A stretch of DNA of 44,620 nucleotides from an uncultured delta proteobacterium (lineage in GTDB: Bacteria > Myxococcota_A > Polyangia > Polyangiales > Ga0077539). Under the pieces are notes generated by a model that was not told the origin of the DNA, did no database searches, and worked only from the letters and a program-made list of their open reading frames with translations. Of the stretch, positions 11,403-37,575 are shown piece after piece. Location of the stretch: positions 1 to 44,620 of the forward strand of contig CAIOSS010000784.1 in the NCBI GenBank assembly GCA_903860995.1, read 5' to 3'. The position numbers and the translations under genes are program-made. The first letter of the stretch is position 1, and each line of letters begins with the position of its first letter.

Positions 11403-11407
11403 CGGCC

Positions 11408-16960: not shown

Positions 16961-16982
16961 CGCTCCCGGCCGAACGTATCAG

Positions 16983-20543: not shown

Positions 20544-20701
20544 GGTGGAGGGAGCCGCGAACGTAGCACGGCGCGCGTGCGAATCAGGGAGCGCCCTGGT
20601 TCGGCGCAGAGGCCCAGGGGATGCCCGCTCGCTACGGCGCTGCTGCCTGCTGGTCCCCTTCGGCGCCCGGAATGCCCGCGCGGGCCTTCTTCAGGGCCCC
20701 C

Positions 20702-21775
20702 TTAGGCCAGCTCCACCACGCAGTCGTCGCCCACCATCAGGCTGAGGGCGCCGGCGCGGGTGCTGCCCGGCCGCACCCGCACCCGACGGCCGAGGAGCGA
20801 GTCCTCCAGGCGCGCGGTGTCCTCGACCACGCAGCCCTCCATCAGCACCGAGTGGTCGACGCCCGAGCGCAGCACCGTCACCCCGTCGCCGATGCTGGTG
20901 TAGGGGCCGATGCGCGCGTCGGTCAGCCGCGCCCCCGCGCCGATGATCACCGGGCCGCGGATGGTCGAGCGCTCCACCACGGCGCCGGCCTCGATGCGCA
21001 CCCGGCCGCTCACCCGGCTCGCGGCGTCGACGAGCCCGAGGCGCGCGGGCACCAGCCACGAGTCGAGCACGGTGGAGTTGGCCAGGAGGAGGTCGTCCTT
21101 CTTGCCGGTGTCCAGCCACCAGGAGCCGAGCACGTCGTGGTGGATGTGCTCGCCCCGCGCCAGGATGCGCGAGAGCGTGTCGGTGATCTCCAGCTCGCCG
21201 CGCGCCGACGGGGCGATCTCCGCGATGGCCGCGAACACCGACGGGCGGAACAGGTACACCCCCACCAGCGCGAGGTCGCTCGGCGGGTCGGCGGGCTTCT
21301 CGACCAGCCGGGTGATGGCCCCGTCGGCGTCGAGCACGGCCACCCCGAAGGCCCGCGGGTCGTCGACGGCCTTGAGCATCACCGAGGCGCTCCAGGCGGG
21401 CTCGGCCCGGAAGGCGTCCACCGCCGGGCGGATGGAGTCGCCGATGAGGTTGTCGCCCAGGTACATGCAGAAGTCGTCGTCGCCCAGGAAGGGCCGCGCC
21501 GTGAGCGCCGCGTGCGCCAGCCCGGCGGGGCGCTCCTGGACGATGTACGTGAGCCGGGCGCCCCAGCGGGCGCCGTCGCCCAGGGCCGCGCGCACCTCCG
21601 CGCCCGTCTCCGGCGAGATGATCACGCCGATGTCGGTGATGCCCGCGTCGACCAGCTTGTCGACGACGAAGAACAGGATCGGCCGGTTGGCCACGGGCAC
21701 CAGCTGCTTGGCGCCGGTGTACGTGATCGGCCGCAGCCGCGAGCCCGCGCCGCCCGCCAGGACGAGGCCCTTCAC
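20702..21775 (-). CDS. rmlA: Glucose-1-phosphate thymidylyltransferase, long form with C-terminal left-handed beta-helix
   Basis: GTG 21775 overlaps the rmlB stop as GTGA. The N-terminus is VKGLVLAGGAGSRLRPITYTGAKQLVPVANRPIL. Hexapeptide-like repeats occupy the last 90 aa or so. Track ORF 20702-21826 is in the same frame. Confidence 0.85.
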   Translation of the reverse strand: MKGLVLAGGAGSRLRPITYTGAKQLVPVANRPILFFVVDKLVDAGITDIGVIISPETGAEVRAALGDGARWGARLTYIVQERPAGLAHAALTARPFLGDDDFCMYLGDNLIGDSIRPAVDAFRAEPAWSASVMLKAVDDPRAFGVAVLDADGAITRLVEKPADPPSDLALVGVYLFRPSVFAAIAEIAPSARGELEITDTLSRILARGEHIHHDVLGSWWLDTGKKDDLLLANSTVLDSWLVPARLGLVDAASRVSGRVRIEAGAVVERSTIRGPVIIGAGARLTDARIGPYTSIGDGVTVLRSGVDHSVLMEGCVVEDTARLEDSLLGRRVRVRPGSTRAGALSLMVGDDCVVELA

Positions 21776-22833
21776 GCGCCGCCCCCGAGGCCGAGGCGCG
21801 CGCGGTCGTGGGCGCGGGCGTCGCACCAGCCGCGGTGCGCGAGGTACCAGCCCACGGTGGCGCGGAGGCCCGCGTCGAGCGAGTGCGCGGGCGACCAGCC
21901 GAGGGCGTCGCGGGCGCGCGCGGCGTCCACGGCGTAGCGGCGGTCGTGGCCGGGGCGGTCGCCGACGAAGCGGATGAGGGCGCGGTAGCCGCCGGGCGGG
22001 GCGCGGAGGCCCGCCGCGGGCGCGAGCTCGTCGAGCAGCGCGCAGAGCGACTCGACCAGGGCGAGGTTGGTGCGCTCGGCGCCGCCGCCCAGGGTGTAGG
22101 TGACCCCGGGGGCGCCGCGCAGGGCTGCGGCCAGGAGGGCGTCGCAGTGGTCGTCGACGTAGAGCCAGTCGCGCACGTGCTGCCCGTCGCCGTACACGGG
22201 CAGCGCGCGGTGCTCGACGGCGTTGAGGATCATCAGCGGGATGAGCTTCTCGGGGAACTGGTACGGCCCGTAGTTGTTCGAGCAGTGGGTGGTCACCACC
22301 GGGAGGCCGTAGGTGTTGGCCCAGGCCCGCGCGAGGTGGTCGCCGCCGGCCTTGGAGGCCGCGTAGGGCGAGTTGGGCGCGTGGGCCGAGCCCTCGTGGA
22401 AGCGCCCGCCGGCGCCGAGGGAGCCGAAGACCTCGTCGGTGGACACCTGCACGAAGCGGAACCCGGGCGGGGCGGCGCCGGACCCGACGTAGCGCCGGGC
22501 GGCCTCGAGCATCGCGTGCGTGCCGAGCACGTTGGTGCGAAGGAAGTCCGTCGCGTCGTCGATGGAGCGGTCGACGTGGGACTCCGCCGCGAGGTGGAGC
22601 ACGGCGTCGGGGCGGTGCTCTCGCAGCAGGGCCTCGACCAGGGCGCGGTCGCAGACGTCGCCGCGCACGAAGCGGTGCCGCGGGTGCCCGGCCACGTCGC
22701 GGAGGTTGTCGAGGCTGCCGGCGTAGGTGAGCAGGTCGAGGGTGACCACGGAGCAGGCGTCGTCGCGCAGGGCGCGGCGCACGAGGTTGGCGCCGATGAA
22801 GCCCGCGCCGCCGGTGACGAGCAGGGCGGTCAC
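21772..22833 (-). CDS. rmlB: dTDP-glucose 4,6-dehydratase
   Basis: This is the 3' 1062 nt of track ORF 21772-23373. GTG 22833 overlaps the upstream stop as GTGA. Motifs are LVTGGAGFIGANLV, HLAAESHVDRS, STDEVFG, YAASKAGGDHL and HCSNNYGPYQFPEKLIP. Confidence 0.9.
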   Translation of the reverse strand: MTALLVTGGAGFIGANLVRRALRDDACSVVTLDLLTYAGSLDNLRDVAGHPRHRFVRGDVCDRALVEALLREHRPDAVLHLAAESHVDRSIDDATDFLRTNVLGTHAMLEAARRYVGSGAAPPGFRFVQVSTDEVFGSLGAGGRFHEGSAHAPNSPYAASKAGGDHLARAWANTYGLPVVTTHCSNNYGPYQFPEKLIPLMILNAVEHRALPVYGDGQHVRDWLYVDDHCDALLAAALRGAPGVTYTLGGGAERTNLALVESLCALLDELAPAAGLRAPPGGYRALIRFVGDRPGHDRRYAVDAARARDALGWSPAHSLDAGLRATVGWYLAHRGWCDARAHDRARLGLGGGA

Positions 22834-25430
22834 GCGGGCACCACCCCGAAGGCCGCGAGCGCGCCGAGGCCCGGCGCCCGCCGCGCGAGCCGCGCCACCC
22901 GCTCGGGGCCGCGCAGCACCTCGAGGGCGCCGTCGGTCAGGCGCAGCCCGTCGCCGAGGGAGAGCACCGCCCCGAGGGCCCGCTCGAAGCCGTCGCGCAC
23001 GGCGCGGTCGTCCGTGGGCGACACGCCACCGACGACGCCGCCGTAGCGCAGCACGTCGGCGTCCTGGCGCGCCTCGGTGAGCACCACGAGGCGGGCGTGG
23101 TCGAAGAACAGCACCGGCCGCGCGAGGGCCTCCCGCAGCGCCGCCGCCGCGGCGGGCTGGGCGCGCGCCAGCAGGTCGAGCACGGCCTCGGCCTGGGCCA
23201 CCGCCCGCGGGCACCCGTACGAGCACGGGAACGACGGCAGCACGTACGCGAAGAGGTTGTTGAGCACCGGCGCGAAGGGCAGGCCCAGCCGCCGGGTGCG
23301 CGCGAGCGCGGCGTAGCGGATGGCCGTGTTGTTGGAGCGGTCGGGGAGGGCGGCGAAGGCCTCCACGCAGCACGGCGGGTACCCGAGCATGGCGCCCATC
23401 TCGGCGAGGTGCTCGCTCGGGCCGCGCGGGTCTTCGTAGATGGCGCGGGCGCGAGCCACGAGGGCGGGGTCACGGGAGAGGAAGAGGTCGACGTGGGTGC
23501 CCTCGCCGGGCGCCGCGGGGGCGCGGCCGCGCACGTCGGTGACGGCGTCATACGTGAACAGGTAATCGACCCGCGCGGCGTGGTGGTCGGCGAAGCGCGC
23601 GGCGAAGGCCTCGGCCTCGGCGCGGGGGAGGGTGAGGTAGAGCGCGGGCTTCAGGCCGTGCTCGTAGGCGAGCACCTCGAGGCGCGGGACGTCCACCCGC
23701 AGCGGGTCGGCGGGGAGCGGGGGAGGGTCCGCGGGGAGCCCGTCGGGGGCCTCGAGGCCGAGGGCGCGGAGGGCCTCGGCGGGGGTGCGGGCGTCGCGGG
23801 CCGCGGCGCTGACGCGCTGCCAGCCGGCGCGGTCGTCGGCCGGGGGCGGGCCGATGACGACGGCGGGCGAGGGGCGGGCGGGAGGGCGCGCGGGCGAGGG
23901 GGAGGGCGCGCCGTCGGCCCCGGGGGAGGTGTGGCGGATCTGCTGGAAGCGCGAGCCGAGCGAGCGGACGACGTCGCGGGCGAGGTCGGGGACGGGGTCG
24001 CCCCAGCGGTCGGGGCGGCGCTCGAGGAAGCGCACGATCTCGCGCAGCATGCGCACCTCGTCGTGGCGGCCCACCACGCGGAACATCGCGTCGTGGACGC
24101 CGTACGCCCGGTCGGTGGCGAGGTGCTGGAAGCGCCACGGGACCTCGGCCTCGTAGCCGTAGCGCCGGGCCGAGTCCATGGCCTCGTAGGGGAAGCGCTC
24201 GGCCAGCAGGCCCTCGTGCTTGGCTTTGTAGAAGAGCGCGGTGTCGGGGTAGAGCCGGAGCTTGGCGCGGGTGACCTGGCCGCGGAACTCCTGGAGCCCG
24301 ACGCGCTCGGCGGCGTCGAGGTTGAGGACGATGTCCGAGAGCTCGGTCCAGGGGTTGTAGAGGATGAACCCGAAGGCCGCGGGGGTGTCCGAGTAGCTCT
24401 TGGGGTAGCGCCGGCGGAGGCGCCGGCACTCGAGCACGGTGCGCTCGTTCTGCTCGACGGTGACGCCCTTGTTGTAGAGGTCGAGGTCCTTCTGCGAGAG
24501 GCTCTCCAGGCCCACCAGGAAGAGCAGCACCCGGTGGCCGTGGCGCTCGGCGCCCTGCCGCGCGCGCTCCATCACCGGCATCGAGCCGAGGAACCAGTCC
24601 GCCCGCGTCTCGATCAGCACCTCCATCGGGTGCGCGGCGCGCTCGCCGAGCCGGTCGATGAACTGCACCAGGTAGGGGAAGGGGTTCTGGTCGTTGAGCT
24701 GGATGCGCGCGGTCTCGGGCGCGTGATCGAGCAGGTGGTCGAGCTGCGCGAGCACCGACGCGAGCACCTCGCCGGACGGGCGCCGCGGGATGCCGCCGGA
24801 CGCGCAGAAGCTGCAGCCGCGGAGCACGACCTTCTCGTCGGGAAAGGGGACGTCGCGGAAGTGGGGGTTGTCCCGCACGCTCTGCCCGTAGGCGCACCCG
24901 GCGCTGCCGTGCACCACCGCGGGCCGGTCGGGCCGCTGGTCGCGGCCGACGCCGATGCGCACCAGGTTGTCCCGGGCGTGCGCCCGGGTGAGCTCCATCT
25001 GCGGCAGCCGGAACATCGCCTCGGTGACGGGCTCGCCGGCGGCGACGGCGCGGGCGATGGCCGCGAAGGTGTCGACCTGGTTCAGCGGGAAGGCGTGGGT
25101 GGTGCCCGGGAAGGCCACGCGCGGGTCGCCGAGGTAGATCCAGGTGACGTCCGGGAGCTGCGTCCGGAGGCGCTGGAAGACGGCCTCGCTCCACAGGCGC
25201 ACGTACGCGCAGACCCGGTAGCGACCCTGGAGCTGCGCGACGAGGGCGTCGATGGCGGAGAGGTCGTCGGCGTCGGGAGCGTCCGAGGCGGGGAGCGTCG
25301 CCTCGAAGAGCTCGTTGTGGACGCCCTGCGAGGTCAGCGCCGCGGAGAGCGAGGGGATGAGGTCGTCGTGGATGAAGTTCCGGCTCTGCGCAACCTGGAA
25401 CAGCAGGATCGCCGCGGCGGGTTCGACCAT
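22830..25430 (-). CDS. B12-binding-like / radical-SAM-like N-terminal half (non-canonical Cys spacing) fused via Pro-rich linker to a PPCC...PCx3C domain
   Basis: This is an 866-aa ORF. The N-terminal half has C179-x26-C206-x2-C209 (GCAY...LRGCSFCAS) and a TIM-barrel-like VGLESLSQKDLDLYNKG. The linker spans aa 500-580 and is rich in P and A. The C-terminal half has MLGYPPCCVEAF (C687, C688) and SFPCSYGC (C736, C740). It is homologous to ORF 31610-32338. Confidence 0.8.
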   Translation of the reverse strand: MVEPAAAILLFQVAQSRNFIHDDLIPSLSAALTSQGVHNELFEATLPASDAPDADDLSAIDALVAQLQGRYRVCAYVRLWSEAVFQRLRTQLPDVTWIYLGDPRVAFPGTTHAFPLNQVDTFAAIARAVAAGEPVTEAMFRLPQMELTRAHARDNLVRIGVGRDQRPDRPAVVHGSAGCAYGQSVRDNPHFRDVPFPDEKVVLRGCSFCASGGIPRRPSGEVLASVLAQLDHLLDHAPETARIQLNDQNPFPYLVQFIDRLGERAAHPMEVLIETRADWFLGSMPVMERARQGAERHGHRVLLFLVGLESLSQKDLDLYNKGVTVEQNERTVLECRRLRRRYPKSYSDTPAAFGFILYNPWTELSDIVLNLDAAERVGLQEFRGQVTRAKLRLYPDTALFYKAKHEGLLAERFPYEAMDSARRYGYEAEVPWRFQHLATDRAYGVHDAMFRVVGRHDEVRMLREIVRFLERRPDRWGDPVPDLARDVVRSLGSRFQQIRHTSPGADGAPSPSPARPPARPSPAVVIGPPPADDRAGWQRVSAAARDARTPAEALRALGLEAPDGLPADPPPLPADPLRVDVPRLEVLAYEHGLKPALYLTLPRAEAEAFAARFADHHAARVDYLFTYDAVTDVRGRAPAAPGEGTHVDLFLSRDPALVARARAIYEDPRGPSEHLAEMGAMLGYPPCCVEAFAALPDRSNNTAIRYAALARTRRLGLPFAPVLNNLFAYVLPSFPCSYGCPRAVAQAEAVLDLLARAQPAAAAALREALARPVLFFDHARLVVLTEARQDADVLRYGGVVGGVSPTDDRAVRDGFERALGAVLSLGDGLRLTDGALEVLRGPERVARLARRAPGLGALAAFGVVPA

Positions 25431-25435: not shown

Positions 25436-26413
25436 TCAGCGAAACTCCGCGCGGAACGACAGCCCGGCGGAGGCGTTGACCTGCACCAGCGTGTCGCCCA
25501 CGAGCACCCGCGACTGCCGCTGGCTCACCACCGTCAGGCTGCCGGAGCTGTTGTTCTCGGGCGCCGAGAGGAAGCGCCCGAGCACCGACGGGGGAATCTC
25601 CCCGACGCCGCGGGTGCCATCAAAAGAGCACGACGCCGTGATCTCCTCCAGCCAGGTGGGCGTGGTGCCGTTGGCGGGCCGCTGACCCAGGGAGGCGACC
25701 ACCCGCTCCGACGTGGGCTCCCAGCGGAGCGCGAGCGGCGAGCGGCGCTCGATGTAGACGATCTGGTTGATCGCGTCGGGCACCATCGGCCCGATGTACC
25801 GCAGCGGCAAGGGGAACAACACCGGCGCCTGGAACGGCTCCCGCAACCCGCCTCCCACCGCGCCCACACAGATCTCGTCGTCGGCCCTCCAGCGCGCCCC
25901 GGCGGTGCCGTCCGGGCGCGCGTAGGTGCCGTTCGCCTGGGGCATGAGCGCCGCCACCTCGGCCGTCGGGTCGATGCGGTCGCGCACCGTGACGCGCCCG
26001 AGGCTCCAGCCCGTGAGGGGGGCGCCCATGTCGCCGATGTGGTCCGGCGGCGGACGGCAGTCGCGCACCACGCAGGGCCCATCGGTGACCGGCGCGCACC
26101 GTTCGGCCTCGTGGGCCACCACGTTGAACACCGACGCGCCGTGGCCGAGCTGCGGGCCGCGGGACACCTGGCTCACGCTGACGAGCACCGATCGGGCGCC
26201 GACCGCCGCGCTCACCGCGGTGCCCCCGAGCACCGGGCAGGTGGAGGCCCCACCGCCCCCGCACTCCACCCAGGAGCGGCCCTCCCCGCACCCCGAACAG
26301 TTGGTGCCCACGCACCCCGCGTCGGGCTCGACCGAGGTGCTGCCGCAGCGGCCGAGCAGCAGTCCGCCGGTCAGCGTCAGCGCCACTTGCAGGTTCGTCC
26401 GCGCGGTCGTCAT
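25436..26413 (-). CDS. Exported Cys-containing hypothetical protein (first gene of the operon)
   Basis: This is a 325-aa ORF from ATG 26413. The N-terminal hydrophobic segment is LQVALTLTGGLLLGRCGS, followed by the Cys-rich stretch CVGTNCSGCGEGRSWVECGGGGASTC. Its stop lies 5 nt before the start of 22830-25430. I recognised no domain. Confidence 0.65.
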   Translation of the reverse strand: MTTARTNLQVALTLTGGLLLGRCGSTSVEPDAGCVGTNCSGCGEGRSWVECGGGGASTCPVLGGTAVSAAVGARSVLVSVSQVSRGPQLGHGASVFNVVAHEAERCAPVTDGPCVVRDCRPPPDHIGDMGAPLTGWSLGRVTVRDRIDPTAEVAALMPQANGTYARPDGTAGARWRADDEICVGAVGGGLREPFQAPVLFPLPLRYIGPMVPDAINQIVYIERRSPLALRWEPTSERVVASLGQRPANGTTPTWLEEITASCSFDGTRGVGEIPPSVLGRFLSAPENNSSGSLTVVSQRQSRVLVGDTLVQVNASAGLSFRAEFR

Positions 26414-28559: not shown

Positions 28560-29573
28560 ATGTCACTCTGCGTGGTCACAGGCGCCCCCGGCTGGTTGGG
28601 GACGACCCTCGTCCAGGCCCTCCACGCGGGGGCGGCGTTCGGCGCGTTTCGCACCGAGGCGCGGCGGGTGCGCTGCGTGGTGCAGCCGGGCGTCGACGCG
28701 GGCCGGCTCGAGCGCCTCGGGCCGGGCGTGGAGGTCGTGCGAGCCGACCTGCGCCACCGCGAGATGCTGCGCGGCGTCTGCGACGGCGCGACGAGCGTCT
28801 TCCACGCGGCGGGCATCGTCCACCCGCGCCGCGTGTCCGACCTCTACGACGTCAACGTGACCGGCACGCGCAACCTCATCGACGAGGCCATCGCCGCGGG
28901 CGCGAAGCGGTTCGTCCTGGTGAGTTCGAACTCCCCCGCGGGGTTGAACGACTCACCCATGCACCTGATGACCGAAGACGATCCGCCGCGGCCGTACCTG
29001 GGCTACGGGCTCTCGAAGCTCCAGGCGGAGTGGGCCCTGAACGACGCGCACCGCGGTGGGCGCATCGAGGGGGTGATCCTCCGGCCCTGCTGGTTCTACG
29101 GGCCCGACCAGCCCGAGCGGCAGTCGCGGTTCTTCCGGATGATCCAGGGCGGGCACCCCATCATCTTCGGGCGCGGCGACAACCTCCGGAGCATGAGCTA
29201 CATCGACAACACCGTGCAGGGCCTCCTGCGCGCCGAGCGCGTCGCGGCCGCCGCCGGGAAGACCTACTGGATCACCGACCGCCGCCCGTACTCCTTCATC
29301 GAGATCATCGAGACGGTCGCCAAGGTGCTGGGCGTCCGCGTGCAACCGCGCTACCTGCCCCGCGCCAGCTCCGACGTCGCGCGCCTCTGCGACTCGCTCC
29401 TGCAGATGGTGGGCCTCTACAACCAGGAGATCCACGTCGCGGGCGAGCTCGCCGCGTCCATCGCCGTGAGCATCGAGGCCGCGCGCCGCGACCTCGGCTA
29501 CGACCCGGAGATCGAGCTCGAGGAAGGCATGCGGCGCTCCGTCGAGTGGTGCCGCAAGAACGGCCAGCTCTAG
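28560..29573 (+). CDS. NAD-dependent epimerase/dehydratase (extended SDR)
   Basis: ATG 28560 lies within track ORF 27408-29573. Motifs are VVTGAPGWLGTTLV (GxxGxxG) and YGLSKLQAE (YxxxK). The gene is divergent from paralogue 2 across a 90-nt gap. Confidence 0.85.
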   Translation: MSLCVVTGAPGWLGTTLVQALHAGAAFGAFRTEARRVRCVVQPGVDAGRLERLGPGVEVVRADLRHREMLRGVCDGATSVFHAAGIVHPRRVSDLYDVNVTGTRNLIDEAIAAGAKRFVLVSSNSPAGLNDSPMHLMTEDDPPRPYLGYGLSKLQAEWALNDAHRGGRIEGVILRPCWFYGPDQPERQSRFFRMIQGGHPIIFGRGDNLRSMSYIDNTVQGLLRAERVAAAAGKTYWITDRRPYSFIEIIETVAKVLGVRVQPRYLPRASSDVARLCDSLLQMVGLYNQEIHVAGELAASIAVSIEAARRDLGYDPEIELEEGMRRSVEWCRKNGQL

Positions 29574-30610
29574 TGGTGCCGCGGCTCGCGCTGGTGACCG
29601 GGGGCTCCGGGTACCTCGGGAGCGTGCTGGTGCGCCGGCTGCTCGGGCGCGGGTACCGGGTGCGGGTGCTCGACCTGCGCGACGCCGACGACCGGCCCGC
29701 GGGGGTGGAGTTCGTCCGCGGGGATATCCGCGCCGGGGCGGAGGTCGCCCGGGCCTGCGAGGGCGCCGACGTCGTCCACCACGGCGTCGCGCAGGTGCCG
29801 CTGGCGAAGGACTCCAGGCTCTTCCGGAGCGTCAACGTCGATGGAACCCGGACGCTCCTGGCGTGCGCTCGCCGCGCGGGGGTGCGCAAGACCGTGCTGG
29901 TATCCTCCAGCGCCGTCTACGGGGCCCCAGAGCGCAACCCGGTCACCGAGGCGACGCCCGCCCGGCCGGGGGAGGCCTACGGCGCCGCGAAGCTGGAGGG
30001 CGAGCGCGTCGCCGCCGACTTCGTACAAAGGGGCATGGACGTGACGATCGTCCGGCCCCGTACGATCCTCGGGCACGGCAGGCTGGGGCTCTTCCAGGTG
30101 CTGTTCGAGTGGACGCGGCGGGGCAGACCGCTGTGGGTGCTGGGTCGCGGCGACAACCGCTACCAGTTCGTGCACGCCGACGACCTCGCCGACGCGTGCA
30201 TCCTCGCTGGCGAGCGGGCGGGTCCGGCCTCCTATAACATCGGCGCCGAGCGCTTCGGGACCATGCGCGAGGCGCTCGAGACGCTCGCCCGCCACGCGGG
30301 CACCGGGAGCAGGGTGCGCTCGCTCCCCGTCGGCATCGCGGTGCGGCTGATGGCGCTCTCCGGCCGACTGGGGCTCTCCCCCCTGGGCCCATATCACGCC
30401 CTCATGTACGGTCGCGAGATGTACTTCGACGTCACCGCCGCCCGCGAAGACCTGGGCTGGCGCTCGACCGCGAGCAACGAGGAGATGCTCTGCGAGTCGT
30501 ACGACTGGTACCTGGCGCACCACGAGGAGGTCCTCGCCCGACGGGACGCCTCGCCGCACCGATCGGCGGTGCGCCACGGGGTCCTCGATCTGCTCGGTTA
30601 TCTCCCCTGA
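29573..30610 (+). CDS. NAD-dependent epimerase/dehydratase (extended SDR) with C-terminal extension
   Basis: GTG 29573 (or 29576) lies at the upstream TAG. Motifs are LVTGGSGYLGSVLV and YGAAKLEGE. The tail contains YDWYLAHHEEV. It is a paralogue of 37631-38674. Confidence 0.85.
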   Translation: MVPRLALVTGGSGYLGSVLVRRLLGRGYRVRVLDLRDADDRPAGVEFVRGDIRAGAEVARACEGADVVHHGVAQVPLAKDSRLFRSVNVDGTRTLLACARRAGVRKTVLVSSSAVYGAPERNPVTEATPARPGEAYGAAKLEGERVAADFVQRGMDVTIVRPRTILGHGRLGLFQVLFEWTRRGRPLWVLGRGDNRYQFVHADDLADACILAGERAGPASYNIGAERFGTMREALETLARHAGTGSRVRSLPVGIAVRLMALSGRLGLSPLGPYHALMYGREMYFDVTAAREDLGWRSTASNEEMLCESYDWYLAHHEEVLARRDASPHRSAVRHGVLDLLGYLP

Positions 30611-30657: not shown

Positions 30658-31263
30658 ATGGCAGCGGGCGACGACGACACGAAGGTCCCCGGCCGACCCG
30701 AAGGCCCCCCGAGGATGCTCGCGACGGGCGTCGCGATCCTCGCGCTTGGCGCGGCGCTGGTGGTGACCCGGGGCCGTCGGCACCCCACCCGCCCACCGCG
30801 CACGCCGCACGCAGCGAGCGGCGCCCAGCCCATCGGAGCGCCCGACCCTCCTGCGGGCGGCGCTCCCTCCGCGCCCCCTATCCCCCCCGTGGGTGGCGCG
30901 CCGACGCGGGCGCCGCCCGCTCCCCCGGCGGGCGCCGCCGAGCTCGCGCTGGTGGCCCCGCTCGTGGCCGGCGCCGCCCTGGGCGACGGGGAGATCACAG
31001 CGATCACCGGGGTGCAGCGGGGCTTCATGCACGTCCTCGTACGCAGGGGCGCGCAGACCTTCGACCTCGGCATCGGCCTCGCTCGCGATGGAATCGCAGG
31101 CCTGCGCGCGGGCCGCTACGCCGTGTACATCCTGGGCTCGACCCGGCCCGACCCGGCCGCGTTTCCCATCGCCGACGCACTCGCGCGGCGCATGGTCGTC
31201 AACGCGGGCGTGGCCCCTCCGCCGGGGATGTCCGCGGGCGACTTCCCCGCGTCGACGCGGTAG
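30658..31263 (+). CDS. Membrane-anchored protein with Pro-rich linker and small C-terminal domain
   Basis: GGGAGG at 30645-30650 lies 7 nt before ATG 30658. The TM segment is MLATGVAILALGAALVV. A Pro/Ala-rich stretch follows, then about 100 aa of ordered-looking sequence. I recognised no family. Confidence 0.55.
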   Translation: MAAGDDDTKVPGRPEGPPRMLATGVAILALGAALVVTRGRRHPTRPPRTPHAASGAQPIGAPDPPAGGAPSAPPIPPVGGAPTRAPPAPPAGAAELALVAPLVAGAALGDGEITAITGVQRGFMHVLVRRGAQTFDLGIGLARDGIAGLRAGRYAVYILGSTRPDPAAFPIADALARRMVVNAGVAPPPGMSAGDFPASTR

Positions 31264-31609
31264 GGCTCACGGACTCGACGGCGAAGTCCCCGCCCGGGCG
31301 CACGGCGTCCTCCAGGACCTCGACAGCCCGCGCGGCGCCGCCACCCACGACGATGCGACGGGGCTGATCTCGAAGAAGCGCAGACGGCTGAGCCCGCGAC
31401 GTCTCCATGACAAGTTGCGCGTCGATGTGCTCGACCCTCGTCCGCAGGTCGAGTCCTCAAAATCACTTGAATCTTGGCCGCAGTAGGGACGGTCCTTCGT
31501 CGCTGACGTCTCGGGCCGCCTCTGGCACAGATCCCAGCAGGCGCGGCGAGCGCACTGGGCTCCTGCCTCGGGTACGGACGTCAAACCGCTGGTCGGGCCA
31601 TGGGGCGGC

Positions 31610-32338
31610 TCAGCCCCCGAAATCCACGCACCAGGGTGGCGCCGCGGCGTCCGCCCCGCCCGCGGTGATCGCCCCAGCCGCGTCGACCCGGAGCCCCGCG
31701 AGGCGGGCCGCCAGGGCCGCGTCCCGGGGGTCACTCGCGCCATCGCGTCGCCGCGGGGCAGCCGCCCGCGCGATGAGTGCGCGGTCGTCATCGAGGGACA
31801 GCAGCGCCAGCAGGGACTGCGCGGTCGTCGGCTGGCGGGCCGCCAGCGCCGCGCGGAGCGCCTCGGCGACGCCCACCGCGACGGGGCAGTCGTACCGGCA
31901 CGGGTAGAACGAGATGAGCTGGGCGCGCGCGGCCATCAACAGCGGGTTGATGCGCGCGTCGGCCCGCGGCGCCCATGCGCCCCGGTCGAGGCGATCGACG
32001 CCGCGATCGAGGCGCTCGAGGAAGGCCTCCACGCAGCACGGCGGAAAGCCCAGGAGACTCCCGATGGCCCGGTGGCGCGCCGCGGCATCACCCGCGCTCG
32101 CGCGCCCCGGCAGCACGGCCTCCTCGGCGTCCCGCAGGGCGCCCGCGTGCCCGGCCGATCGCGCGGCGTAGAGCACCACCTGCTCGCGCCCGCCCAGCAC
32201 CGCGGTCTGCGCCGCGCGCAGCACCACGGCCCCGCCGGACCGGAGCTGCGCCTCCACCCGCGCGGCGTCCGCCGGGTCGACGGTTCGGCGAATCGCCGGC
32301 TTCTGTCCCAGCTCGAAGGCGAGCCACTCGGCGTCCAT
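31610..32338 (-). CDS. Stand-alone PPCC...PCx3C domain protein
   Basis: This is a 242-aa ORF. LLGFPPCCVEAFLERL and SFYPCRYDCPVAVGVAEAL align with MLGYPPCCVEAFAAL and SFPCSYGCPRAVAQAEAVL of 22830-25430. It is divergent from the radical SAM gene at 32470. Confidence 0.75.
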   Translation of the reverse strand: MDAEWLAFELGQKPAIRRTVDPADAARVEAQLRSGGAVVLRAAQTAVLGGREQVVLYAARSAGHAGALRDAEEAVLPGRASAGDAAARHRAIGSLLGFPPCCVEAFLERLDRGVDRLDRGAWAPRADARINPLLMAARAQLISFYPCRYDCPVAVGVAEALRAALAARQPTTAQSLLALLSLDDDRALIARAAAPRRRDGASDPRDAALAARLAGLRVDAAGAITAGGADAAAPPWCVDFGG

Positions 32339-32469
32339 CGGGGCTCAGGGCCGTTCGGGTTCGTGGTGGCGGCGCAGCACGTCGTGTCCGATGGTCCACC
32401 ACCCCGTGCCGCGCCGCCACCGTGATTGACCTGCCTGGGGCCCTCTGCCACCGTCCGACCATCTCCCCC

Positions 32470-34629
32470 ATGGACCCCGATCGCGCCCGCGGTCTCCCGG
32501 TGCGCCCCTTCTGCGTCACGGCCGCGTGTGATCTCCGCTGCGCATGGTGCGAGTGCTGCGGTGGCCCGACCGGCGTGGACTTCTCCCCGGGCAGCCCCGA
32601 GCAGCCCTCCTTCCCGACCGACCCCACGCACTTCCGTCTCGTGGGCGGCGATCCCTTCTCCCACGGCGACCTGCGCGCGTGGGTCGACTGGGCCCGACAC
32701 AACCCCGCGGCCTACGTCTCCGTCGAGGGCCACGCGCACCGCCTCCTGGAAGCGGGCGCCATCGACCGCCTGCTCGCCGCGCGCCCGGACGCCGTGCGCG
32801 TGCTGCTGCCGACGCTCGACGACGACCTGCTCGCCCGCTGGACGGCGAAGCCCCTCGTGGCCGCGCGCTCCCTCGCGGCGATGGAGGCGCTCCTGGCCGC
32901 CGGGCTCCCGGTCGTCGCCGTCGTCGCCCTCAACGCCGCCACCGCGCCGCACCTCCAGGACACCGTGTCGGGCCTCGCGCGGCGCTTCCAGGGGCGCGTC
33001 CCGGTGGTGCTGCTCCGAGCGCCCGTGCTGCCGCCACGCCCGGGGCGCCTGCACGACCTCGCGGTCGACGATCCCGCCGAGACGCTCACCATCGGCGAGG
33101 CCCTGGAGGCGCTGCCCGCGGCGCTCCCATTCGACGCCTCGCTCACCTTCGACGCGCTGAAGAACGACCCCCCGTGCCTGCTCCCCGCGAGCGCCCGTCG
33201 GCCGGGCCTGGTGACCGCCGCGAGGTCCGAGCGGGCGCTGGCGAGCACCCCCGCCCCGGAGGTGTGCGGCGGGTGCGCCTGGAGGCCCCGGTGCACCTGG
33301 CGACCGGCCGCGCGGGCGGTGCCGGTGCACGCCATGGTGCCGCTCTCGCAGGCCGAGGCCATGGCGATGCAGTCCGCCCTGGAGGCCGGCGCGGCGACCC
33401 CCGCCCGCGTCGACGAGCGCGCCCGGCGGCGCGAGGCGCAGGGGCTGCCCGACCTGCTCTGCTTTGCGCCGTTCACCTCCCTCTCGGTGCACGAGCTGCG
33501 CAAGCGGCCGGTGCCCTGCGCGCAGTCGTGGGTGGACACCACCTCGACGCCGGAAATGGAGGCCGAGGCGCTGGGGGTGCCCGTGGCGGAGGTCGTCGCC
33601 ATGAACGCCCGCGCCCAGGAACTCTGGGGCGTGCCCTGGCACGACGTCATGAACGAGGACTGGCCCCTGCGCGAGGTCTGGAACGCCCCGCTGCTGCGCC
33701 ACATGCGTCGGCAGATGGTGCGCGGCGGGCCGAGCGACCGGTGCCGCTCGAGCTGCCGCGTGGTGCTCGGGGTCGAGGAGCGGGGGACGCCCTTCCTGAC
33801 GCGCCCGGACGCCGAGCTCTCCGCGGCGGTGGTGGCCAACCGACGGCTCCTGCTCGACGAGCTGCGCGCGGGGAAGGCGGTGCTCACGGCGCTGCCGATC
33901 GACCTGTGCGTAGGCGTCTCGTCGCACTGCAACATCAGCTGCGGCTTCTGCACCGGCCCGATGGGAAACTTCGGAGAGCTGAGTGACCGGCGCTTCGCGG
34001 AGGTCGTGGAGCTCCTGCCGACGCTGATGCACTTCTCCGCCGTGGGCCCCGGAGAGCCGCTGATGAGCGCGGCCTTCAACCGCCTGCTCGACCACATCGC
34101 CGCCGGCGACTACCCCTCGCTCACGGTGAGCGTCACCACCAACGGGACCCTGCTGCGCCAGAGCTGGATCGACCGCTATCAACACCTGCGCTGGGGAATG
34201 ATCCGCGTCTCGCTCAACGCCGGGAGCGCCGCCACCTACGAGCGGATGACCGGGAAGACCGGCTACTTCGAGCGGGTCCTTGCAGGCCTGGAGATGCTCG
34301 CCGCGATGCGCGACCGCCAGCGCGACCCCTTCGAGCTGGTCGTGAGCTGCGTGCTCGGCGCCAACGTGCAGGGCGACCTCGCGCCCTTCGCCGCGTTGGT
34401 CGACCGCCTGGGCGCGCGCATCGTGCTCGAACCCATGACCGGCGACCTGGACGGCACCAGCCCCTACAAAGACCCGGGGCGCACCCGCGCGCTCGCGGCC
34501 GAGTGCCATACGGTCGCAGACGCCTATGCGATCCAGAACCCCCCGGTGGCGCGCGCGTTCAACGCCATGGCAACGTTCGCCGAGGAGCGGCTGCGCAAGC
34601 GGCTCCAGGTGATCCTGCCGCGCCGGTGA
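32470..34629 (+). CDS. Double radical-SAM protein: radical SAM (CX3CX2C) + CX2CX5C/SPASM-like Cys cluster + second radical SAM core
   Basis: ATG 32470 lies within track ORF 31975-34629 and gives 719 aa. Core 1 is C20-x3-C24-x2-C27 (TAACDLRCAWC) with LVGGDPF. Next come C266-x2-C269-x5-C275 and a SPASM-like LCFAPFTSLSV...PVPC...EVWNAPLLRHMRR...CRSSC. Core 2 is C487-x3-C491-x2-C494 (SSHCNISCGFC) with GPGEPLM and TTNGTLL. Confidence 0.85.
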   Translation: MDPDRARGLPVRPFCVTAACDLRCAWCECCGGPTGVDFSPGSPEQPSFPTDPTHFRLVGGDPFSHGDLRAWVDWARHNPAAYVSVEGHAHRLLEAGAIDRLLAARPDAVRVLLPTLDDDLLARWTAKPLVAARSLAAMEALLAAGLPVVAVVALNAATAPHLQDTVSGLARRFQGRVPVVLLRAPVLPPRPGRLHDLAVDDPAETLTIGEALEALPAALPFDASLTFDALKNDPPCLLPASARRPGLVTAARSERALASTPAPEVCGGCAWRPRCTWRPAARAVPVHAMVPLSQAEAMAMQSALEAGAATPARVDERARRREAQGLPDLLCFAPFTSLSVHELRKRPVPCAQSWVDTTSTPEMEAEALGVPVAEVVAMNARAQELWGVPWHDVMNEDWPLREVWNAPLLRHMRRQMVRGGPSDRCRSSCRVVLGVEERGTPFLTRPDAELSAAVVANRRLLLDELRAGKAVLTALPIDLCVGVSSHCNISCGFCTGPMGNFGELSDRRFAEVVELLPTLMHFSAVGPGEPLMSAAFNRLLDHIAAGDYPSLTVSVTTNGTLLRQSWIDRYQHLRWGMIRVSLNAGSAATYERMTGKTGYFERVLAGLEMLAAMRDRQRDPFELVVSCVLGANVQGDLAPFAALVDRLGARIVLEPMTGDLDGTSPYKDPGRTRALAAECHTVADAYAIQNPPVARAFNAMATFAEERLRKRLQVILPRR

Positions 34630-34690: not shown

Positions 34691-36304
34691 TTGGGCCGGA
34701 TCAAAATCCTTGCGCTGGTGATGCTGGGCGCGGCCTGCGCGACGCCCGGGGCCGCGCGCGACGCCGGGACCGACCCGGAGCAGCCCGTCGATGACCAGCC
34801 GCGCCTGGTGGTGCGGCGACGGCTCACGCGCGACGAGCTCTCGGCCACGCTGCGCGCGCTCCTGCGCAGGGGCGGCGAGTTTCCGCAGCTCCCCCTCGAC
34901 GCGCGGATCCGGGGCTTCGACACCAGTCCGGAGGTGCTCCCGGTCTCCTCGGCGCACGCGGCCGCCTTCGCGCTCATCGCCAACGAGGCCGCCGTGCAGA
35001 TCGAGCTCTCGGGGGGCCCCGCGGTGCTCCTGGGCGCCCCGTGCAACCTCGCCGGCGACGCCGACCGCTGCGTCGACGCCTTCATCCGTCGCCTGGGTCG
35101 GCGCGTGTACCGGCGCGCGCTCAGCGACGAGGAGGTCGCGTCCTACCACGCGCTCGCGGCCGCGGCGGGAGGTGACCACGGCCAGGCGCTCCGCTCAGTG
35201 ATGTCCGCGCTGCTCCAGTCGCCGTGGTTCCTCTACGCGGTGGAGTCGGCGCGGCGCGACCCCGCGCGCCCGGGGCGGTGGCGCCTGGATGGGTGGTCGA
35301 CCGCGACCCGGCTGGCGCTGCTCCTGTGGGGTGAGGGGCCGGACGACGCGCTGCTCGACCGCGCTGCCCGCGGCGAGCTCGACACCGACGAGGGCGCCCG
35401 GCGCGTGGCGGCGGACATGCTCGCCGACGGGAGGGCGCGCGCCGGCGTCGGGCGCTTTCTGCGCGAATGGCTGCGGCTCTACGCGGTCGACTGGCTCCAG
35501 CGCGACCCGACGCGCTACCCGAGATGGCAGGGCAACCTCGGAGGTGACCTGCGCGAGGAGACCGTGCGCTTCGCCGACGAGGTGGTCTGGGGCGAAGGCG
35601 GCGACCTGCGCGACCTGCTCACCGGCCCTTGGACCTGGATGAACCCCGCCATCGCCGGTCTCTACGGCGTCGCGCCGCCGCCGTCGGGGGCCTGGACGCG
35701 CGTGGCGTTCCCGGACGGGGAGGGGCGCGCGGGCATCCTCACGCAGCCCAGCGTGCTGGCCATCACCGCGCTGAGCCGCCGGGAGTCCGCGACGCTGCGC
35801 GGGGAGTACGTGCGCTCGGTGCTGCTCTGCGACCCCGTGGGCTCGCCGCCCCCGGAGGCCGCGGACGTCCCGCCGGGGCCCGCCGACGAGACCGAGCGCC
35901 AACGGCTGGCGCGGCACGCGAGCGCCCCGGCGTGCGCCTCCTGCCACGCGCGCCTCGACCCCGTGGGCCTCGGGTTCGAACGCTATGACGGCGTCGGCGG
36001 GATGATCGCAGGGCGTGACGACCTCACCGGCCGCGGCTCCGTCGCCGGCCTCACCCCGGCGGACTTCACCGGGCCGGTCGAGCTCGGCCGCCTGCTCCGC
36101 GCGAGCGGGCGCTTCGAGCGCTGCGCCGCCACGCAGCTCCTCCGCTTCGCGCTCGGCCGCGCGGAGGCGCCCCGCGACGAGGCGACGATCGACCTCATGA
36201 CGCGCGCCCTGGCCGCGTCGTCGTACCGATTTCCGGCGATGGCGGCCGCGCTGGTGACGAGCGAGGCGTTCCTCACGCTGAGTGACGCGGAGGTGATGCG
36301 ATGA
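34691..36304 (+). CDS. DUF1592/DUF1588/DUF1585-like exported protein (usual partner of DUF1552)
   Basis: GGAGGA (34675-34680) precedes TTG 34691. The signal is GRIKILALVMLGAAC. Family-typical segments are GILTQPSVLAITA, RGEYVRSVLLCDPVGSPPPE and CASCHARLDPVGLGFERYDGVGG. Confidence 0.8.
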   Translation: MGRIKILALVMLGAACATPGAARDAGTDPEQPVDDQPRLVVRRRLTRDELSATLRALLRRGGEFPQLPLDARIRGFDTSPEVLPVSSAHAAAFALIANEAAVQIELSGGPAVLLGAPCNLAGDADRCVDAFIRRLGRRVYRRALSDEEVASYHALAAAAGGDHGQALRSVMSALLQSPWFLYAVESARRDPARPGRWRLDGWSTATRLALLLWGEGPDDALLDRAARGELDTDEGARRVAADMLADGRARAGVGRFLREWLRLYAVDWLQRDPTRYPRWQGNLGGDLREETVRFADEVVWGEGGDLRDLLTGPWTWMNPAIAGLYGVAPPPSGAWTRVAFPDGEGRAGILTQPSVLAITALSRRESATLRGEYVRSVLLCDPVGSPPPEAADVPPGPADETERQRLARHASAPACASCHARLDPVGLGFERYDGVGGMIAGRDDLTGRGSVAGLTPADFTGPVELGRLLRASGRFERCAATQLLRFALGRAEAPRDEATIDLMTRALAASSYRFPAMAAALVTSEAFLTLSDAEVMR

Positions 36305-37575
36305 GACCGTTCCGACTGTCGCGCAGGGCCGTACTGAGGGGCCTCGGGGCAACGATCGCGCTGCCCGTCCTCGACGCGATGCTCGACGACCGTGGGCGCC
36401 TGCACGGCGTCGCGCACGCGCAGGGCATGGAGGCCCCGGTGTGCCTCGTGACGTGGTTCTTCGCGCACGGCACCAAGATGGACGCCTGGACCCCGCCCGA
36501 CGACGGCGCCCGGTGGACGCCCACCCCGTGCCTCGCGCCGCTCGACGCGCACCGCGGCGACCTCCTCGTGCTCACCGGGCTGGCCAACCCCGCGCCGGAG
36601 CTTCTGTCCTCCGTAGGCGGCCCGCACTCCCGCGGCGCCGCGAGCTGGGCCAGCGGGATGCCCACCTCCGCGACGGGCGCGGGCGGCCCGACCTTCGAGC
36701 GCCTCGCCGCGGCGGAGCTCGGCGGCGCCACCCGCTTCCGCGCGCTGAGCGTGGTGAACGCCCCGGAGGCGCCCGGCGTCGAGTCCGGCTCCTCGGCGAT
36801 GCTCACCAACCTCTCGTGGTCCGGGCCGAGCCGGCCGGCGCCCGCGACGCGGGACCCCGCGCAGCTCTTCGCGCAGCTCTTCGGCAGCGTGCGCTCCGAC
36901 GGCTCGGGCGGCAGCGTGCTCGACCACGTGCGCGGCGAGCTGCTGGCGCTGCAGTCCCGCGTCGGCCGCGACGACCGCGCGCGGCTCGAGGAGCACCTGG
37001 GCGCGGTGCGCGACATGGAGCGCGCGGCGACCCCTGGCGCGGCGTGCTCCCCCGGCGTCGCGCCCCCGGACGCGACGCTCCCTCCGCCGGAGAGCGCGCG
37101 GCTCCTCCTGCGGCTCATCACGGCCGCGCTGCGGTGCGACCTCACGCGCTTCGCCAGCTTCGCGCTCAGCAACGCGCTCAACAACAGCCCGCTCCCCTGG
37201 CTCGGCCTGAACGACGGCCACCACGACCTGTCACATCAGGACGACCACGACACCATCGTGCGCATCACGCGCGACGCCATGGAGCACGCCGCGTTCTTCC
37301 TCGGCGAGCTGGCGGCGGCGCGCGACGCCCGCGGCCGTCTCCTCGACCGCTGTCTGGTGTTCATCTCGAGCGAGGTGTCCGACGGCGCGCGCCACGACTA
37401 CCGCGACCTCCCGGTGATCGTGGCGGGCCGCGGCGGGGGCGTGGCGCCGGGCGCCCACCTGCGCGTCGCCCCGCACACGTCCATCTGTCGGCTGTACCTC
37501 TCGCTGCTCCAGCGCGCGGGGGCGCGGGTCGACCGCTTCGGCCTCGACGGCGAGTCCCCCCTCGCGCTCCCGTAG
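36301..37575 (+). CDS. DUF1552-like protein with twin-arginine-type signal
   Basis: The start overlaps the upstream stop as ATGA. The N-terminus is MRPFRLSRRAVLRGLGATIALPVLDAML. It is 424 aa long and shows the typical pairing with the preceding gene. Confidence 0.8.
   Translation: MRPFRLSRRAVLRGLGATIALPVLDAMLDDRGRLHGVAHAQGMEAPVCLVTWFFAHGTKMDAWTPPDDGARWTPTPCLAPLDAHRGDLLVLTGLANPAPELLSSVGGPHSRGAASWASGMPTSATGAGGPTFERLAAAELGGATRFRALSVVNAPEAPGVESGSSAMLTNLSWSGPSRPAPATRDPAQLFAQLFGSVRSDGSGGSVLDHVRGELLALQSRVGRDDRARLEEHLGAVRDMERAATPGAACSPGVAPPDATLPPPESARLLLRLITAALRCDLTRFASFALSNALNNSPLPWLGLNDGHHDLSHQDDHDTIVRITRDAMEHAAFFLGELAAARDARGRLLDRCLVFISSEVSDGARHDYRDLPVIVAGRGGGVAPGAHLRVAPHTSICRLYLSLLQRAGARVDRFGLDGESPLALP

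Follow-up and report, generated by a model that had tools for sequence, protein, structure and literature searches.

PPCC-domain genes are linked to an HxsC-like radical-SAM module type in Myxococcota and other bacterial phyla

Some of biology's most difficult reactions are catalyzed by radical S-adenosylmethionine (radical-SAM) enzymes, which often need small partner proteins that are hard to spot from sequence. A 44,620-nt contig from an uncultured delta proteobacterium (CAIOSS010000784.1, assembly GCA_903860995.1; the whole contig was analyzed and is called the window here) raises the question whether such a partner is encoded in it. In the window, a small gene with a Pro-Pro-Cys-Cys motif diverges from a gene for a 719-amino-acid (aa) protein with two radical-SAM cores, and a second copy of the motif lies near another double radical-SAM gene, encoding 1186 aa. 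The original prediction, in which the label “PPCC domain” was coined, took this for two copies of a pairing between a PPCC domain and a shared N-terminal radical-SAM module, and for a functional unit rather than chance adjacency. Here, we show that PPCC genes are strongly and repeatedly linked to one HxsC-like type of radical-SAM module across phyla. The features of the window that bear on this question are as follows.

31610-32338, minus strand: small stand-alone PPCC protein of 242 aa, DUF483-like, with C101, C102, C147 and C151
32339-32469, no strand: divergent spacer of 131 nt, from the sequence
32424-32454, plus strand: promoter-like conserved block GATTGACC-N17-CACCGT, from alignment of orthologous spacers
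32470-34629, plus strand: predicted three-part radical-SAM protein of 719 aa (Pfam, profiles, 22 full-length homologues, AlphaFold2)
32500-33297, plus strand: module 1 of the 719-aa protein, aa 11-276 (hhalign against the 107-sequence module profile)
33445-33771, plus strand: twitch-like middle region of the 719-aa protein, aa 326-434 (weak match to NF033640; four invariant cysteines)
33895-34569, plus strand: module 2 of the 719-aa protein, aa 476-700, canonical radical-SAM core (Pfam, hhalign)
22830-25430, minus strand: 866-aa radical-SAM-like protein with a C-terminal PPCC domain (BLASTP, profiles, Pfam)
22833-23678, minus strand: second PPCC domain, aa 585-866 of the 866-aa protein, with C687, C688, C736 and C740 (BLASTP; DUF483, 21.7 bits)
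16983-20543, minus strand: 1186-aa double radical-SAM protein, with an HxsC4-like module at aa 25-302 and a B12-binding-type region with its core at aa 709-920

The window has a G+C content of 75%, and its source appears to be a Polyangiales-like member of the Myxococcota. Genes were called from the third-position GC phase together with the length of the open reading frames (ORFs). The coding status of the 242-aa and 719-aa ORFs was backed by GC phase, and their divergent arrangement around the spacer is real, as had been described. The PPCC motif occurs in frame exactly twice in the window, as GFPPCC in the 242-aa ORF and as GYPPCC at about residue 685 of the 866-aa ORF.

The two PPCC regions are homologous: BLASTP aligned 176 aa of them at E 4e-11, with 31% identity. 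Against the Pfam family DUF483 (PF04467), they scored 21.1 and 21.7 bits, just under the gathering cut-off of 25, which is passed by several relatives, namely a PPCC protein of locus L081 (35.8 bits), P0226 (32.8 bits) and the radical-SAM fusions of L064 (28.8 bits) and P0174 (26.9 bits). The core of the domain, from G-[FY]-P-x-C-C to P-C-x3-C, aligns to positions ~30-100 of the DUF483 profile, whereas the bacterial PPCC proteins as a whole are ~270 aa long and carry extra N- and C-terminal beta-rich parts, compared with 122 positions in the model. In a diverse PPCC alignment, four cysteines, two prolines and one glycine are invariant, and the 50 homologues found for the 242-aa protein, mostly of 270-285 aa, share the pattern G-L-G-x-P-x-C-C ... 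N ... P-C-x-x-D-C. Judged from these profiles, the PPCC domain appears to be a distant bacterial branch of DUF483 with four invariant cysteines. A third homologue search with the diverse PPCC profile did not reach the archaeal DUF483 proteins, and hhalign revealed no relation between PPCC and HxsD. The family is large, a search of 1.84 billion representatives having brought up 2,747 members at 50% identity with E<=1e-3 (984 with E<=1e-10), and it comes as stand-alone proteins of ~220-280 aa, as proteins of ~380-410 aa, and as proteins of ~865-926 aa with a C-terminal PPCC domain. A regular-expression split of the domain into ‘A’ and ‘B’ subtypes was too crude for quantitative use and was rejected. 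Literature searches on DUF483, PF04467 and 2GUK found no paper discussing the family, and searches on radical-SAM clusters of Myxococcota found nothing relevant.

The 242-aa protein of the window, recorded in identical form on five contigs from several public sources, lacks two segments that are present in all homologues, one of 14 aa (RGGPGGFAEDYVAA-like), in which a near-invariant E-D pair lies, and one of 15 aa (HPVAVAADGARALLS-like). Both deletions are in-frame, and in the protein sequence short direct repeats border each of them (RG...RG and ALLS...ALLS).

A motif-based scan, with one genome per species, yielded 80 PPCC loci, most of them from Myxococcota (Polyangiales, Nannocystis, Sandaracinaceae and Kofleriaceae) and the rest from Binatia, Thermodesulfobacteriota, Planctomycetota and one bacterium of the Candidate Phyla Radiation (CPR). 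Radical-SAM ORFs were called in these loci by a hidden Markov model (HMM) trained iteratively on them. A radical-SAM ORF was found within 10 kb of PPCC in 47 of the 80 loci and within 3 kb in 39, and the PPCC loci contained 170 radical-SAM ORFs in 1.27 Mb (1.3 per 10 kb). Clustering of the neighbours uncovered one widely shared family, the HxsC-like radical-SAM type, with 106 ORFs in 35 loci. Furthermore, 23 of the 80 loci have at least two PPCC ORFs, and 21 of these 23 also have radical-SAM genes (mean 4.4). When the search was started in reverse from homologues of the 719-aa protein, PPCC was found within 10 kb in eight of nine contexts, the sole context without it being that of an orthologue that lacks the module-1 cysteines. 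In loci L007, L008 and L012, the small PPCC, 866-like, 1186-like and 719-like genes are kept together in changed order.

Both domains also occur within single proteins. Seven stop-to-stop ORFs in the genome loci carry a radical-SAM and a PPCC domain. In the 593-aa fusion P0174, a Radical_SAM match (74.9 bits) is followed by the DUF483 match (26.9 bits), with a CX2CX5C tail directly before PPCC; the fusion at L064:7802-10795 joins two radical-SAM stretches to a DUF483 match (28.8 bits), and that at L047:1369-5712 is similar. These data agree with the enrichment of PPCC genes near radical-SAM genes expected for other genomes, and the original prediction survives this test as it does that of module similarity. 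Together with the homology of the modules described below, the linkage and the fusions support a functional unit and not chance adjacency. They also give DUF483 a first context, tied to one radical-SAM module type by neighbourhood, fusion and co-retention across distant phyla, and they reveal very large clusters, with up to 10-11 radical-SAM genes each, in Myxococcota, Binatia and a small-genome CPR bacterium.

The shared module itself required a closer comparison. The 1186-aa protein has CX3CX2C motifs at 34 and 734, GGEP at 78 and CX2CX5C at 292, and the original prediction had held its first module to resemble that of the 719-aa protein. In a direct pairwise comparison the likeness did not stand, as BLASTP between the N-terminal modules reached no significance (best E 0.057, over the CX2CX5C stretch only). 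Similarly, hhalign of the module-1 profile against the single 1186-aa sequence gave a probability of 19%, compared with 95% for module 2 against the same sequence. Between family profiles the likeness stood firmly: with 21 sequences for module 1 and 107 for the 1186-type module (106 homologues and the 1186-aa module itself), module 1 (aa 11-276) aligned to residues 25-302 of the 1186-aa protein over 254 columns at 99.6% probability and E 2.5e-24, with 17% identity. In this alignment, C236 is paired with C249 (PxC) and C266/269/275 with C292/295/301, while for module 2 only a 162-column core aligned to the 1186-type profile. The homology is visible at the level of families and took family profiles to detect, pairwise BLASTP and single-sequence hhalign having fallen short. 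On this profile evidence, both proteins begin with the same ~300-aa HxsC-like module.

This recurrent module of ~300 aa has an N-terminal CX3CX2C, GGE or GGD, and a C-terminal four-cysteine site, PxC...CX2CX5C. In the 107-sequence alignment, C34/38/41 and C292/295/301 are invariant, and C249 and E80 are conserved to 96% and 97%, respectively. The module of the 1186-aa protein (aa 26-322) has more than 100 homologous ORFs in the loci that were fetched via the PPCC motif. Its nearest named relatives are HxsC4 and HxsC, and the 1186-aa N-terminus falls far below the cut-offs of both (HxsC4, NF038332, 102 bits versus 500; HxsC, TIGR03977, 61.6 versus 267.9). BlsE is among its top model matches (E 3.5e-15). 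The C-terminal half of the 1186-aa protein resembles the B12-binding class B radical-SAM families PhpK, HpnJ and BchE (E 2e-19 to 1e-14), with scores below the cut-offs; the score for PhpK, 69 bits, is far below its curated cut-off.

In the 719-aa protein, all the cysteine motifs lie where they had been placed, with CX3CX2C at C20/24/27 and C487/491/494 and a single CX2CX5C at C266/269/275; GGDP is at 59, LCFAPF at 330, PVPC at 347, EVWN at 402 and CRSSC at 425. Its conservation was analyzed in 21 sequences, the window protein and 20 of 22 full-length homologues (43-92% identity). The whole protein scored 64.4 bits against Pfam Radical_SAM (PF04055; cut-off 29.5), with the best stretch at aa 484-612, and aa 321-719 alone scored 47.3 bits, module 2 being the sole core above threshold. 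In module 2, C487/491/494 are invariant and GPGEP is present, and hhalign matched it to the 1186-aa N-terminus at E 2e-8. Module 1 alone scored 18.9 bits, below the Radical_SAM cut-off, while profile comparisons with radical-SAM modules gave E 2.5e-24 and E 1e-6. Within module 1, C24, C30 and GGD are each at least 90% conserved, and the tail cysteines C236, C266, C269 and C275 are invariant, while C20 and C27 are variable: seven of the 21 sequences have T or S at C20, P0062 has no triad, and in P0070 the triad is deleted. A reading of module 1 as a dead pseudo-domain was considered first and now looks less certain, because most of the 21 sequences retain at least three cysteines among C20/24/27/30 and GGD is at least 90% conserved.

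The stretch between the cores had been called SPASM-like. The strings on which that label was based are present, but the SPASM motif CX2CX5CX3C is absent from the 719-aa protein, no Pfam SPASM match was found in it, and the likeness to a twitch domain is weak (E 1.1e-3 against the N-terminal twitch part of NF033640). C331, C350, C425 and C429 of this region are invariant. For aa ~320-719, NF033640 (N_Twi_rSAM) was the best NCBIfam match (E 1.8e-14), and the parts are ordered alike in both, with a twitch-like region containing cysteines ahead of a radical-SAM core. The 719-aa protein differs from that family in carrying an additional HxsC-like module in front, and the cut-off of 170 was not reached (53.7 bits for aa 320-719; 51-54 bits over the scores obtained); with HxsC-type models it scored 33 bits, also below the curated cut-off. 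In the AlphaFold2 model of the protein (pLDDT 82), both modules take up a (beta/alpha)6 pattern. Together, these comparisons describe the 719-aa protein as a divergent HxsC-like module 1 of uncertain catalytic status, a twitch-like four-cysteine region and a canonical radical-SAM core, an assignment made from profiles and conservation.

The 866-aa protein consists of a radical-SAM-like N-terminal half, a proline-rich linker and the C-terminal PPCC domain. The profile of its N-terminal half matched a general radical-SAM profile (90% probability, E 2e-6), indicating that the second PPCC copy is itself part of a fusion with a radical-SAM-like domain. This half shows a weak likeness to the B12-type core of the 1186-aa protein and a faint one to ArsL and HpnJ. 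Unlike class B enzymes, it is without the first cysteine of CX3CX2C and keeps C179...C206-x2-C209; across 18 homologues, C179 and G-C206-x-F-C209 are conserved within the N-terminal 480 residues. In locus L002, which encodes identical 242-aa and 719-aa proteins, the 866-like gene at 9945-12529 is called as two genes of 415 and 285 aa. Its C-terminal part shares 82% identity with that of the window, and a Stig1-like gene comes next to it in place of the sugar-nucleotide genes, a difference that suggests a strain-level rearrangement or a chimeric assembly. A Stig1-domain protein adjoins the 866-like gene in L003 as well as in L002.

How are these genes arranged in the window? The divergent pair at 31610-34629 belongs to a single biosynthetic gene cluster, which spans about 15.3-34.6 kb and also includes the following genes.

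15344-16960, minus strand: 538-aa polytopic membrane protein with 8 transmembrane (TM)-like segments, the last gene of the minus-strand operon; no Pfam or NCBIfam match
20702-21826, minus strand: sugar-1-phosphate nucleotidyltransferase with a hexapeptide-repeat C-terminus (NTP_transferase, 189 bits; Hexapep)
21772-22833, minus strand: dTDP-glucose 4,6-dehydratase-like gene (GDP_Man_Dehyd, 268 bits; Epimerase, 214 bits)
25436-26413, minus strand: 325-aa cysteine-rich protein directly upstream of the 866-aa gene; no family match, a homologue in L006
26790-28469, minus strand: polytopic membrane protein with ~10 TM segments, GT-C/PMT_2 glycosyltransferase-like (PMT_2, 22.5 bits, below the cut-off of 26.1)
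28560-29573 and 29573-30610, plus strand: two tandem NAD-dependent sugar epimerase/dehydratase genes (family matches)
30658-31263, plus strand: 201-aa ORF, between the epimerase/dehydratase genes and the small PPCC gene on the map

An operon-like run on the minus strand comprises 25436-26413, 22830-25430, 21772-22833, 20702-21826, 16983-20543 and 15344-16960, and within it the GTG start of the dehydratase-like gene overlaps the stop codon of the 866-aa gene. The 866-aa PPCC gene is thus on the same strand as the 1186-aa gene and two genes upstream of it, with two sugar-nucleotide genes between them, so the divergence seen for the small PPCC gene does not extend to the first PPCC gene. Of the two copies of a PPCC/module pairing proposed originally, the two PPCC paralogues are present, but they belong to one cluster and do not make two independent pairs.

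In addition to the nucleotidyltransferase, dehydratase and epimerase genes, the window encodes four polytopic GT-C-like proteins. In Foldseek searches, the model of the 719-aa protein was best matched by BlsE (7vob, E 5e-7) and DesII (8hzv, E 8e-7), both twitch-type enzymes acting on sugar nucleotides; they differ from it in having a single module and no PPCC partner, and the window sequence scores far below their family cut-offs. The dTDP-glucose dehydratase context resembles that of the DesII pathway in desosamine biosynthesis. Because the nucleotidyltransferase, dehydratase and epimerases are co-operonic and BlsE and DesII are the nearest structures, we propose that the radical-SAM enzymes of the window probably tailor an NDP-deoxyhexose-derived sugar or glycoconjugate, which is then moved by GT-C-like membrane proteins. 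A clean operon with similar components was found at 106-19922 (plus strand) of L081, from a metagenome-assembled genome of a Candidatus Portnoybacteria member (CPR), where the G+C content of 45% makes ORFs unambiguous. Among its 17 genes are ten radical-SAM genes, mostly of ~300 aa, most with CX3CX2C at ~16-37 and about half also with CX2CX5C at ~272-301; its PPCC gene is directly followed by PMT_2, and GT2, GT4, a class-III aminotransferase, a carbamoyltransferase and a GDSL protein are also encoded. For a small CPR genome this operon is a large investment.

Other PPCC loci point in a different direction. In L087, 11 radical-SAM genes lie together with a gene for a Pfam HxsD protein and an ORF of 92 aa that ends in AQHCS(HGS)11W, and a six-frame scan for H-x-S repeats detected such ORFs in 12 PPCC loci, inside clusters of PPCC and multiple radical-SAM genes, as listed below.

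L087:14830-15108, plus strand: (HGS)n precursor ORF, leader followed by AQH-x-S-(HGS)n-W
L030:12546-12893: (HGS)n precursor ORF (motif scan, as for the ten that follow)
L037:11814-12224: (HGS)n precursor ORF
L039:4711-5019: (HGS)n precursor ORF
L042:6586-7797: (HGS)n precursor ORF
L048:10462-10812: (HGS)n precursor ORF
L049:11851-12819: (HGS)n precursor ORF
L054:11791-12162: (HGS)n precursor ORF
L058:11844-12473: (HGS)n precursor ORF
L059:11839-11955: (HGS)n precursor ORF
L074:3298-3591: (HGS)n precursor ORF
L078:17234-17800: (HGS)n precursor ORF
L087:12600-13097 and 13094-13315: HxsD-like protein (Pfam HxsD call) and related 73-aa ORF
L029, L037, L039, L042, L047, L049, L054, L057, L058, L074 and L078: HxsD-like homologues (tblastn)

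After a conserved leader, P-x-F-K-x-K ... SDRA-x-D-x-AD, comes AQH-x-S-(HGS)10-15-W and then the stop codon, and by their sequence these ORFs look like His-Xaa-Ser-type precursor peptides. Genes for HxsD-like proteins of ~165 aa were found in 12 loci with the L087 proteins as tblastn queries (E<=0.01); 11 of these loci were counted as having a precursor. The named exceptions are L047, L057 and L029, with an HxsD-like gene and no detected precursor, and L030, L048 and L059, with a precursor and no HxsD-like gene. The related 73-aa protein was counted in 11 loci and was not found in L029 or L039.

In the characterized HXS anti-phage system, HxsB, HxsC and HxsD mature the HxS-repeat protein HxsA, and HxsC binds the small HxsD (Nat Commun 2026, PMC13128918). 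One PPCC branch is connected to this system through the (HGS)n precursors. The recurrent module also resembles HxsC in that HxsC4 and HxsC are its best-scoring models, in its second C-terminal cysteine motif, and in being accompanied by a small non-catalytic partner. It differs in scoring 3-5 times below the curated cut-offs, and the classical system has four genes, without DUF483/PPCC, whereas the clusters here have up to 11 radical-SAM genes together with sugar genes. Moreover, the window is without HxsD and without a His-Xaa-Ser repeat gene, and PPCC is unrelated to HxsD.

What, then, does the PPCC protein do in the window? We favour, as reasonably probable, the reading that the window holds one multi-radical-SAM cluster in which PPCC is an accessory partner of the HxsC-like modules and a sugar or glycoconjugate is tailored. 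PPCC is most likely a metal-binding accessory domain. It would dock on HxsC-like radical-SAM modules as a partner, and its four cysteines would hold a metal centre, either an Fe-S cluster or zinc. Its role may be structural, electron-transfer or substrate-presenting, parallel to that of HxsD for HxsC or of PqqD-like domains for PqqE-type enzymes, and the two paralogues may act as a pair. PqqD-like recognition domains are small partners that occur free beside, or fused to, peptide-modifying radical-SAM enzymes. No sequence or fold relation between them and PPCC was seen, and PPCC has an invariant four-cysteine site that those domains lack; in the PPCC fusions, PPCC is C-terminal to the radical-SAM module.

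Several results weigh against this partnership in sugar tailoring. Both metal binding and interaction are deduced from conservation and context. Foldseek with the AlphaFold2 model of P0002, a close homologue of the 242-aa protein (pLDDT 94), gave no informative neighbour: the top match was 2guk (E 0.014), itself without known function, and NleE came next, weakly; these two and low-probability, scattered, partial GNAT-like matches were not relied on. The PPCC profile matched no PDB sequence even at E<=10. A full 33 of the 80 PPCC loci (41%; 0.55 Mb) have zero radical-SAM ORFs within 10 kb, which argues against false positives of the HMM. They include all six loci from cultured Nannocystis species, with unrelated neighbours such as a kinase, a CoA transferase and a sigma factor. 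The bacterial background of ~0.05 radical-SAM genes per 10 kb, with which the density in PPCC loci can be compared, is a general figure and not one from these genomes. The 242-aa copy, without 29 conserved residues, may be impaired. NifB, SuiB, viperin and MoaA come next after BlsE and DesII among the structural matches, the gap to NifB, SuiB and viperin being about ten- to hundred-fold. Polytopic ORFs were present in 16 of the 47 loci with radical-SAM genes and in 3 of the 33 without, but a general association with GT-C glycosyltransferases was not established, as the Pfam identities of ten such ORFs are mixed (one weak PMT_2, an MFS transporter, a ClC channel and COX1). Finally, the (HGS)n precursors and HxsD-like genes point to peptide chemistry for the family.

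The last point leads to the alternative that the window's cluster is itself an HXS-type system for peptide or protein maturation, in which the radical-SAM modules would act on a ribosomal peptide or protein, PPCC would aid its recognition or processing, and the sugar genes would be separate or serve a later decoration. It agrees with the HxsC4/HxsC affinity of the recurrent module, with the precursors, the HxsD-like genes and the 73-aa relatives in other PPCC loci, and with the Pfam HxsD calls, clear in L087 and, within a radical-SAM protein from the 719-like cluster of L092, faint. However, neither a His-Xaa-Ser repeat ORF (six-frame scan) nor an HxsD-like ORF (tblastn, E<=0.01) was found in the window, L003, L004 or L006-L012; the scanned ones among them also had no other ORF for a repeat peptide. 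Clustering of small ORFs across loci gave no conserved peptide family; it also missed the HGS precursors, probably because of the composition filter and the low-complexity masking of BLAST. The Hxs model scores are far below the curated cut-offs, and the sugar-nucleotide genes lie in the same operon with a stop/start overlap. Considering also that a precursor could lie outside the 44.6-kb contig, we regard this alternative as unlikely, though still to be reckoned with. Less probable again, and in our view improbable, is that PPCC is the substrate or a scaffold, with its cysteines modified by the adjacent radical-SAM enzymes or carrying a cofactor under assembly. HydF and NifEN-type scaffolds and the cysteine targets of anSME and QhpD are precedents for such roles. 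PPCC, which is defined by its four invariant cysteines, and multiple radical-SAM paralogues are all that is conserved across loci, with no common third partner to serve as substrate; up to 10-11 radical-SAM genes per locus suggest a multi-step assembly, and L090 adds NifH-like and nitrogenase-like (Oxidored_nitro) genes. Yet a covalent fusion of enzyme and substrate would be unusual, several clades have a separate and obvious substrate in the (HGS)n peptides, and many PPCC genes have no radical-SAM neighbour.

It is also conceivable that the adjacency is meaningless, with both gene types sharing variable genomic islands in Myxococcota and module 1 being a decayed duplicate without a role. The radical-SAM-free PPCC loci, the unconserved CX3CX2C of module 1 and the two deletions in the window's small PPCC copy would fit with this. 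It is contradicted, however, by the fusions, in several architectures, and by the linkage, which recurs in Myxococcota, Binatia, Thermodesulfobacteriota, Planctomycetota and CPR. In addition, the tail cysteines C236, C266, C269 and C275 and other residues are invariant across orthologues of 43-92% identity, and the components are co-retained despite reordering of the genes. We therefore consider it very improbable. Returning to the accessory-partner reading, a bolder extension, which we put forward only tentatively, is that DUF483/PPCC represents a new class of four-cysteine, probably Fe-S, partner subunit, whose paired paralogues would organize several HxsC-like modules into a multi-enzyme assembly. 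Depending on the clade, the assembly would mature (HGS)n peptides or, in the window's clade, produce a radical-tailored deoxysugar glycoconjugate or a new cofactor. If true, ~2,700 sequence clusters would receive their first functional assignment, and HXS-type chemistry would reach beyond anti-phage effectors. The natural fusion proteins, the clean low-GC operon of L081 and the defined precursor family offer experimental handles.

A search of the spacer at 32339-32469 for a shared divergent promoter had been proposed. A scan of 31200-32700 for a consensus sigma-70 promoter and terminators found nothing. When the spacer was aligned with the orthologous spacers of L003 and L012, the sole conserved block was GATTGACC-N17-CACCGT, which stops 16 nt short of the start codon (ATG) of the radical-SAM gene, and the PPCC-proximal side was not conserved. 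The block is a putative promoter of the 719-aa gene.

Further recurrent radical-SAM fusions were observed in L006, L011, L039, L088 and L092, where several proteins of ~980-1000 aa join the module to a GFO_IDH_MocA oxidoreductase domain, and in L054 and L087 the radical-SAM module is fused to a methyltransferase. The fusion at 8552-10753 of L092, in a 719-like cluster, combines a radical-SAM protein bearing the faint HxsD-like region with a Fer2 (2Fe-2S ferredoxin) domain. In another 719-like cluster, that of L090, the stretch 16789-22082 combines a B12-binding radical-SAM gene with genes for a NifH-like ATPase and two nitrogenase-like proteins, and this group borders on a PPCC gene and ten additional radical-SAM genes.

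No Rfam family and no tRNA was detected in the window. Against the defence models of PADLOC-DB, the core proteins showed just generic radical-SAM similarity to pVip (37 bits), and the PPCC proteins had no match. Directly downstream of the 719-aa gene, positions 34691-37575 (plus strand) encode a 537-aa DUF1587/1595/1592/1588/1585 protein and a 424-aa protein, the latter called HXXSHH (PF07586) in the identical contigs L001/ERZ1426743; this DUF1587-type/HXXSHH gene pair also follows the 719-aa orthologue in L003. Just beyond the other end of the cluster, 12778-14481 (plus strand) encodes a 567-aa protein with choice-of-anchor D and C-terminal ResA/TlpA-like thiol-disulfide oxidoreductase domains. 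At the start of the contig, positions 1-124 hold 3.4 copies of a perfect 36-nt repeat, and 307-957 hold 3.3 copies of a 195-nt repeat (91% matches), which could encode cysteine-rich CGG-x-C units, its coding strand being uncertain. The G+C content is lower at 3029-3823 (~0.69 versus 0.75), and a perfect 12-nt repeat of 3.2 copies at 3704-3742 would read (VG)n or (TP)n depending on the strand.

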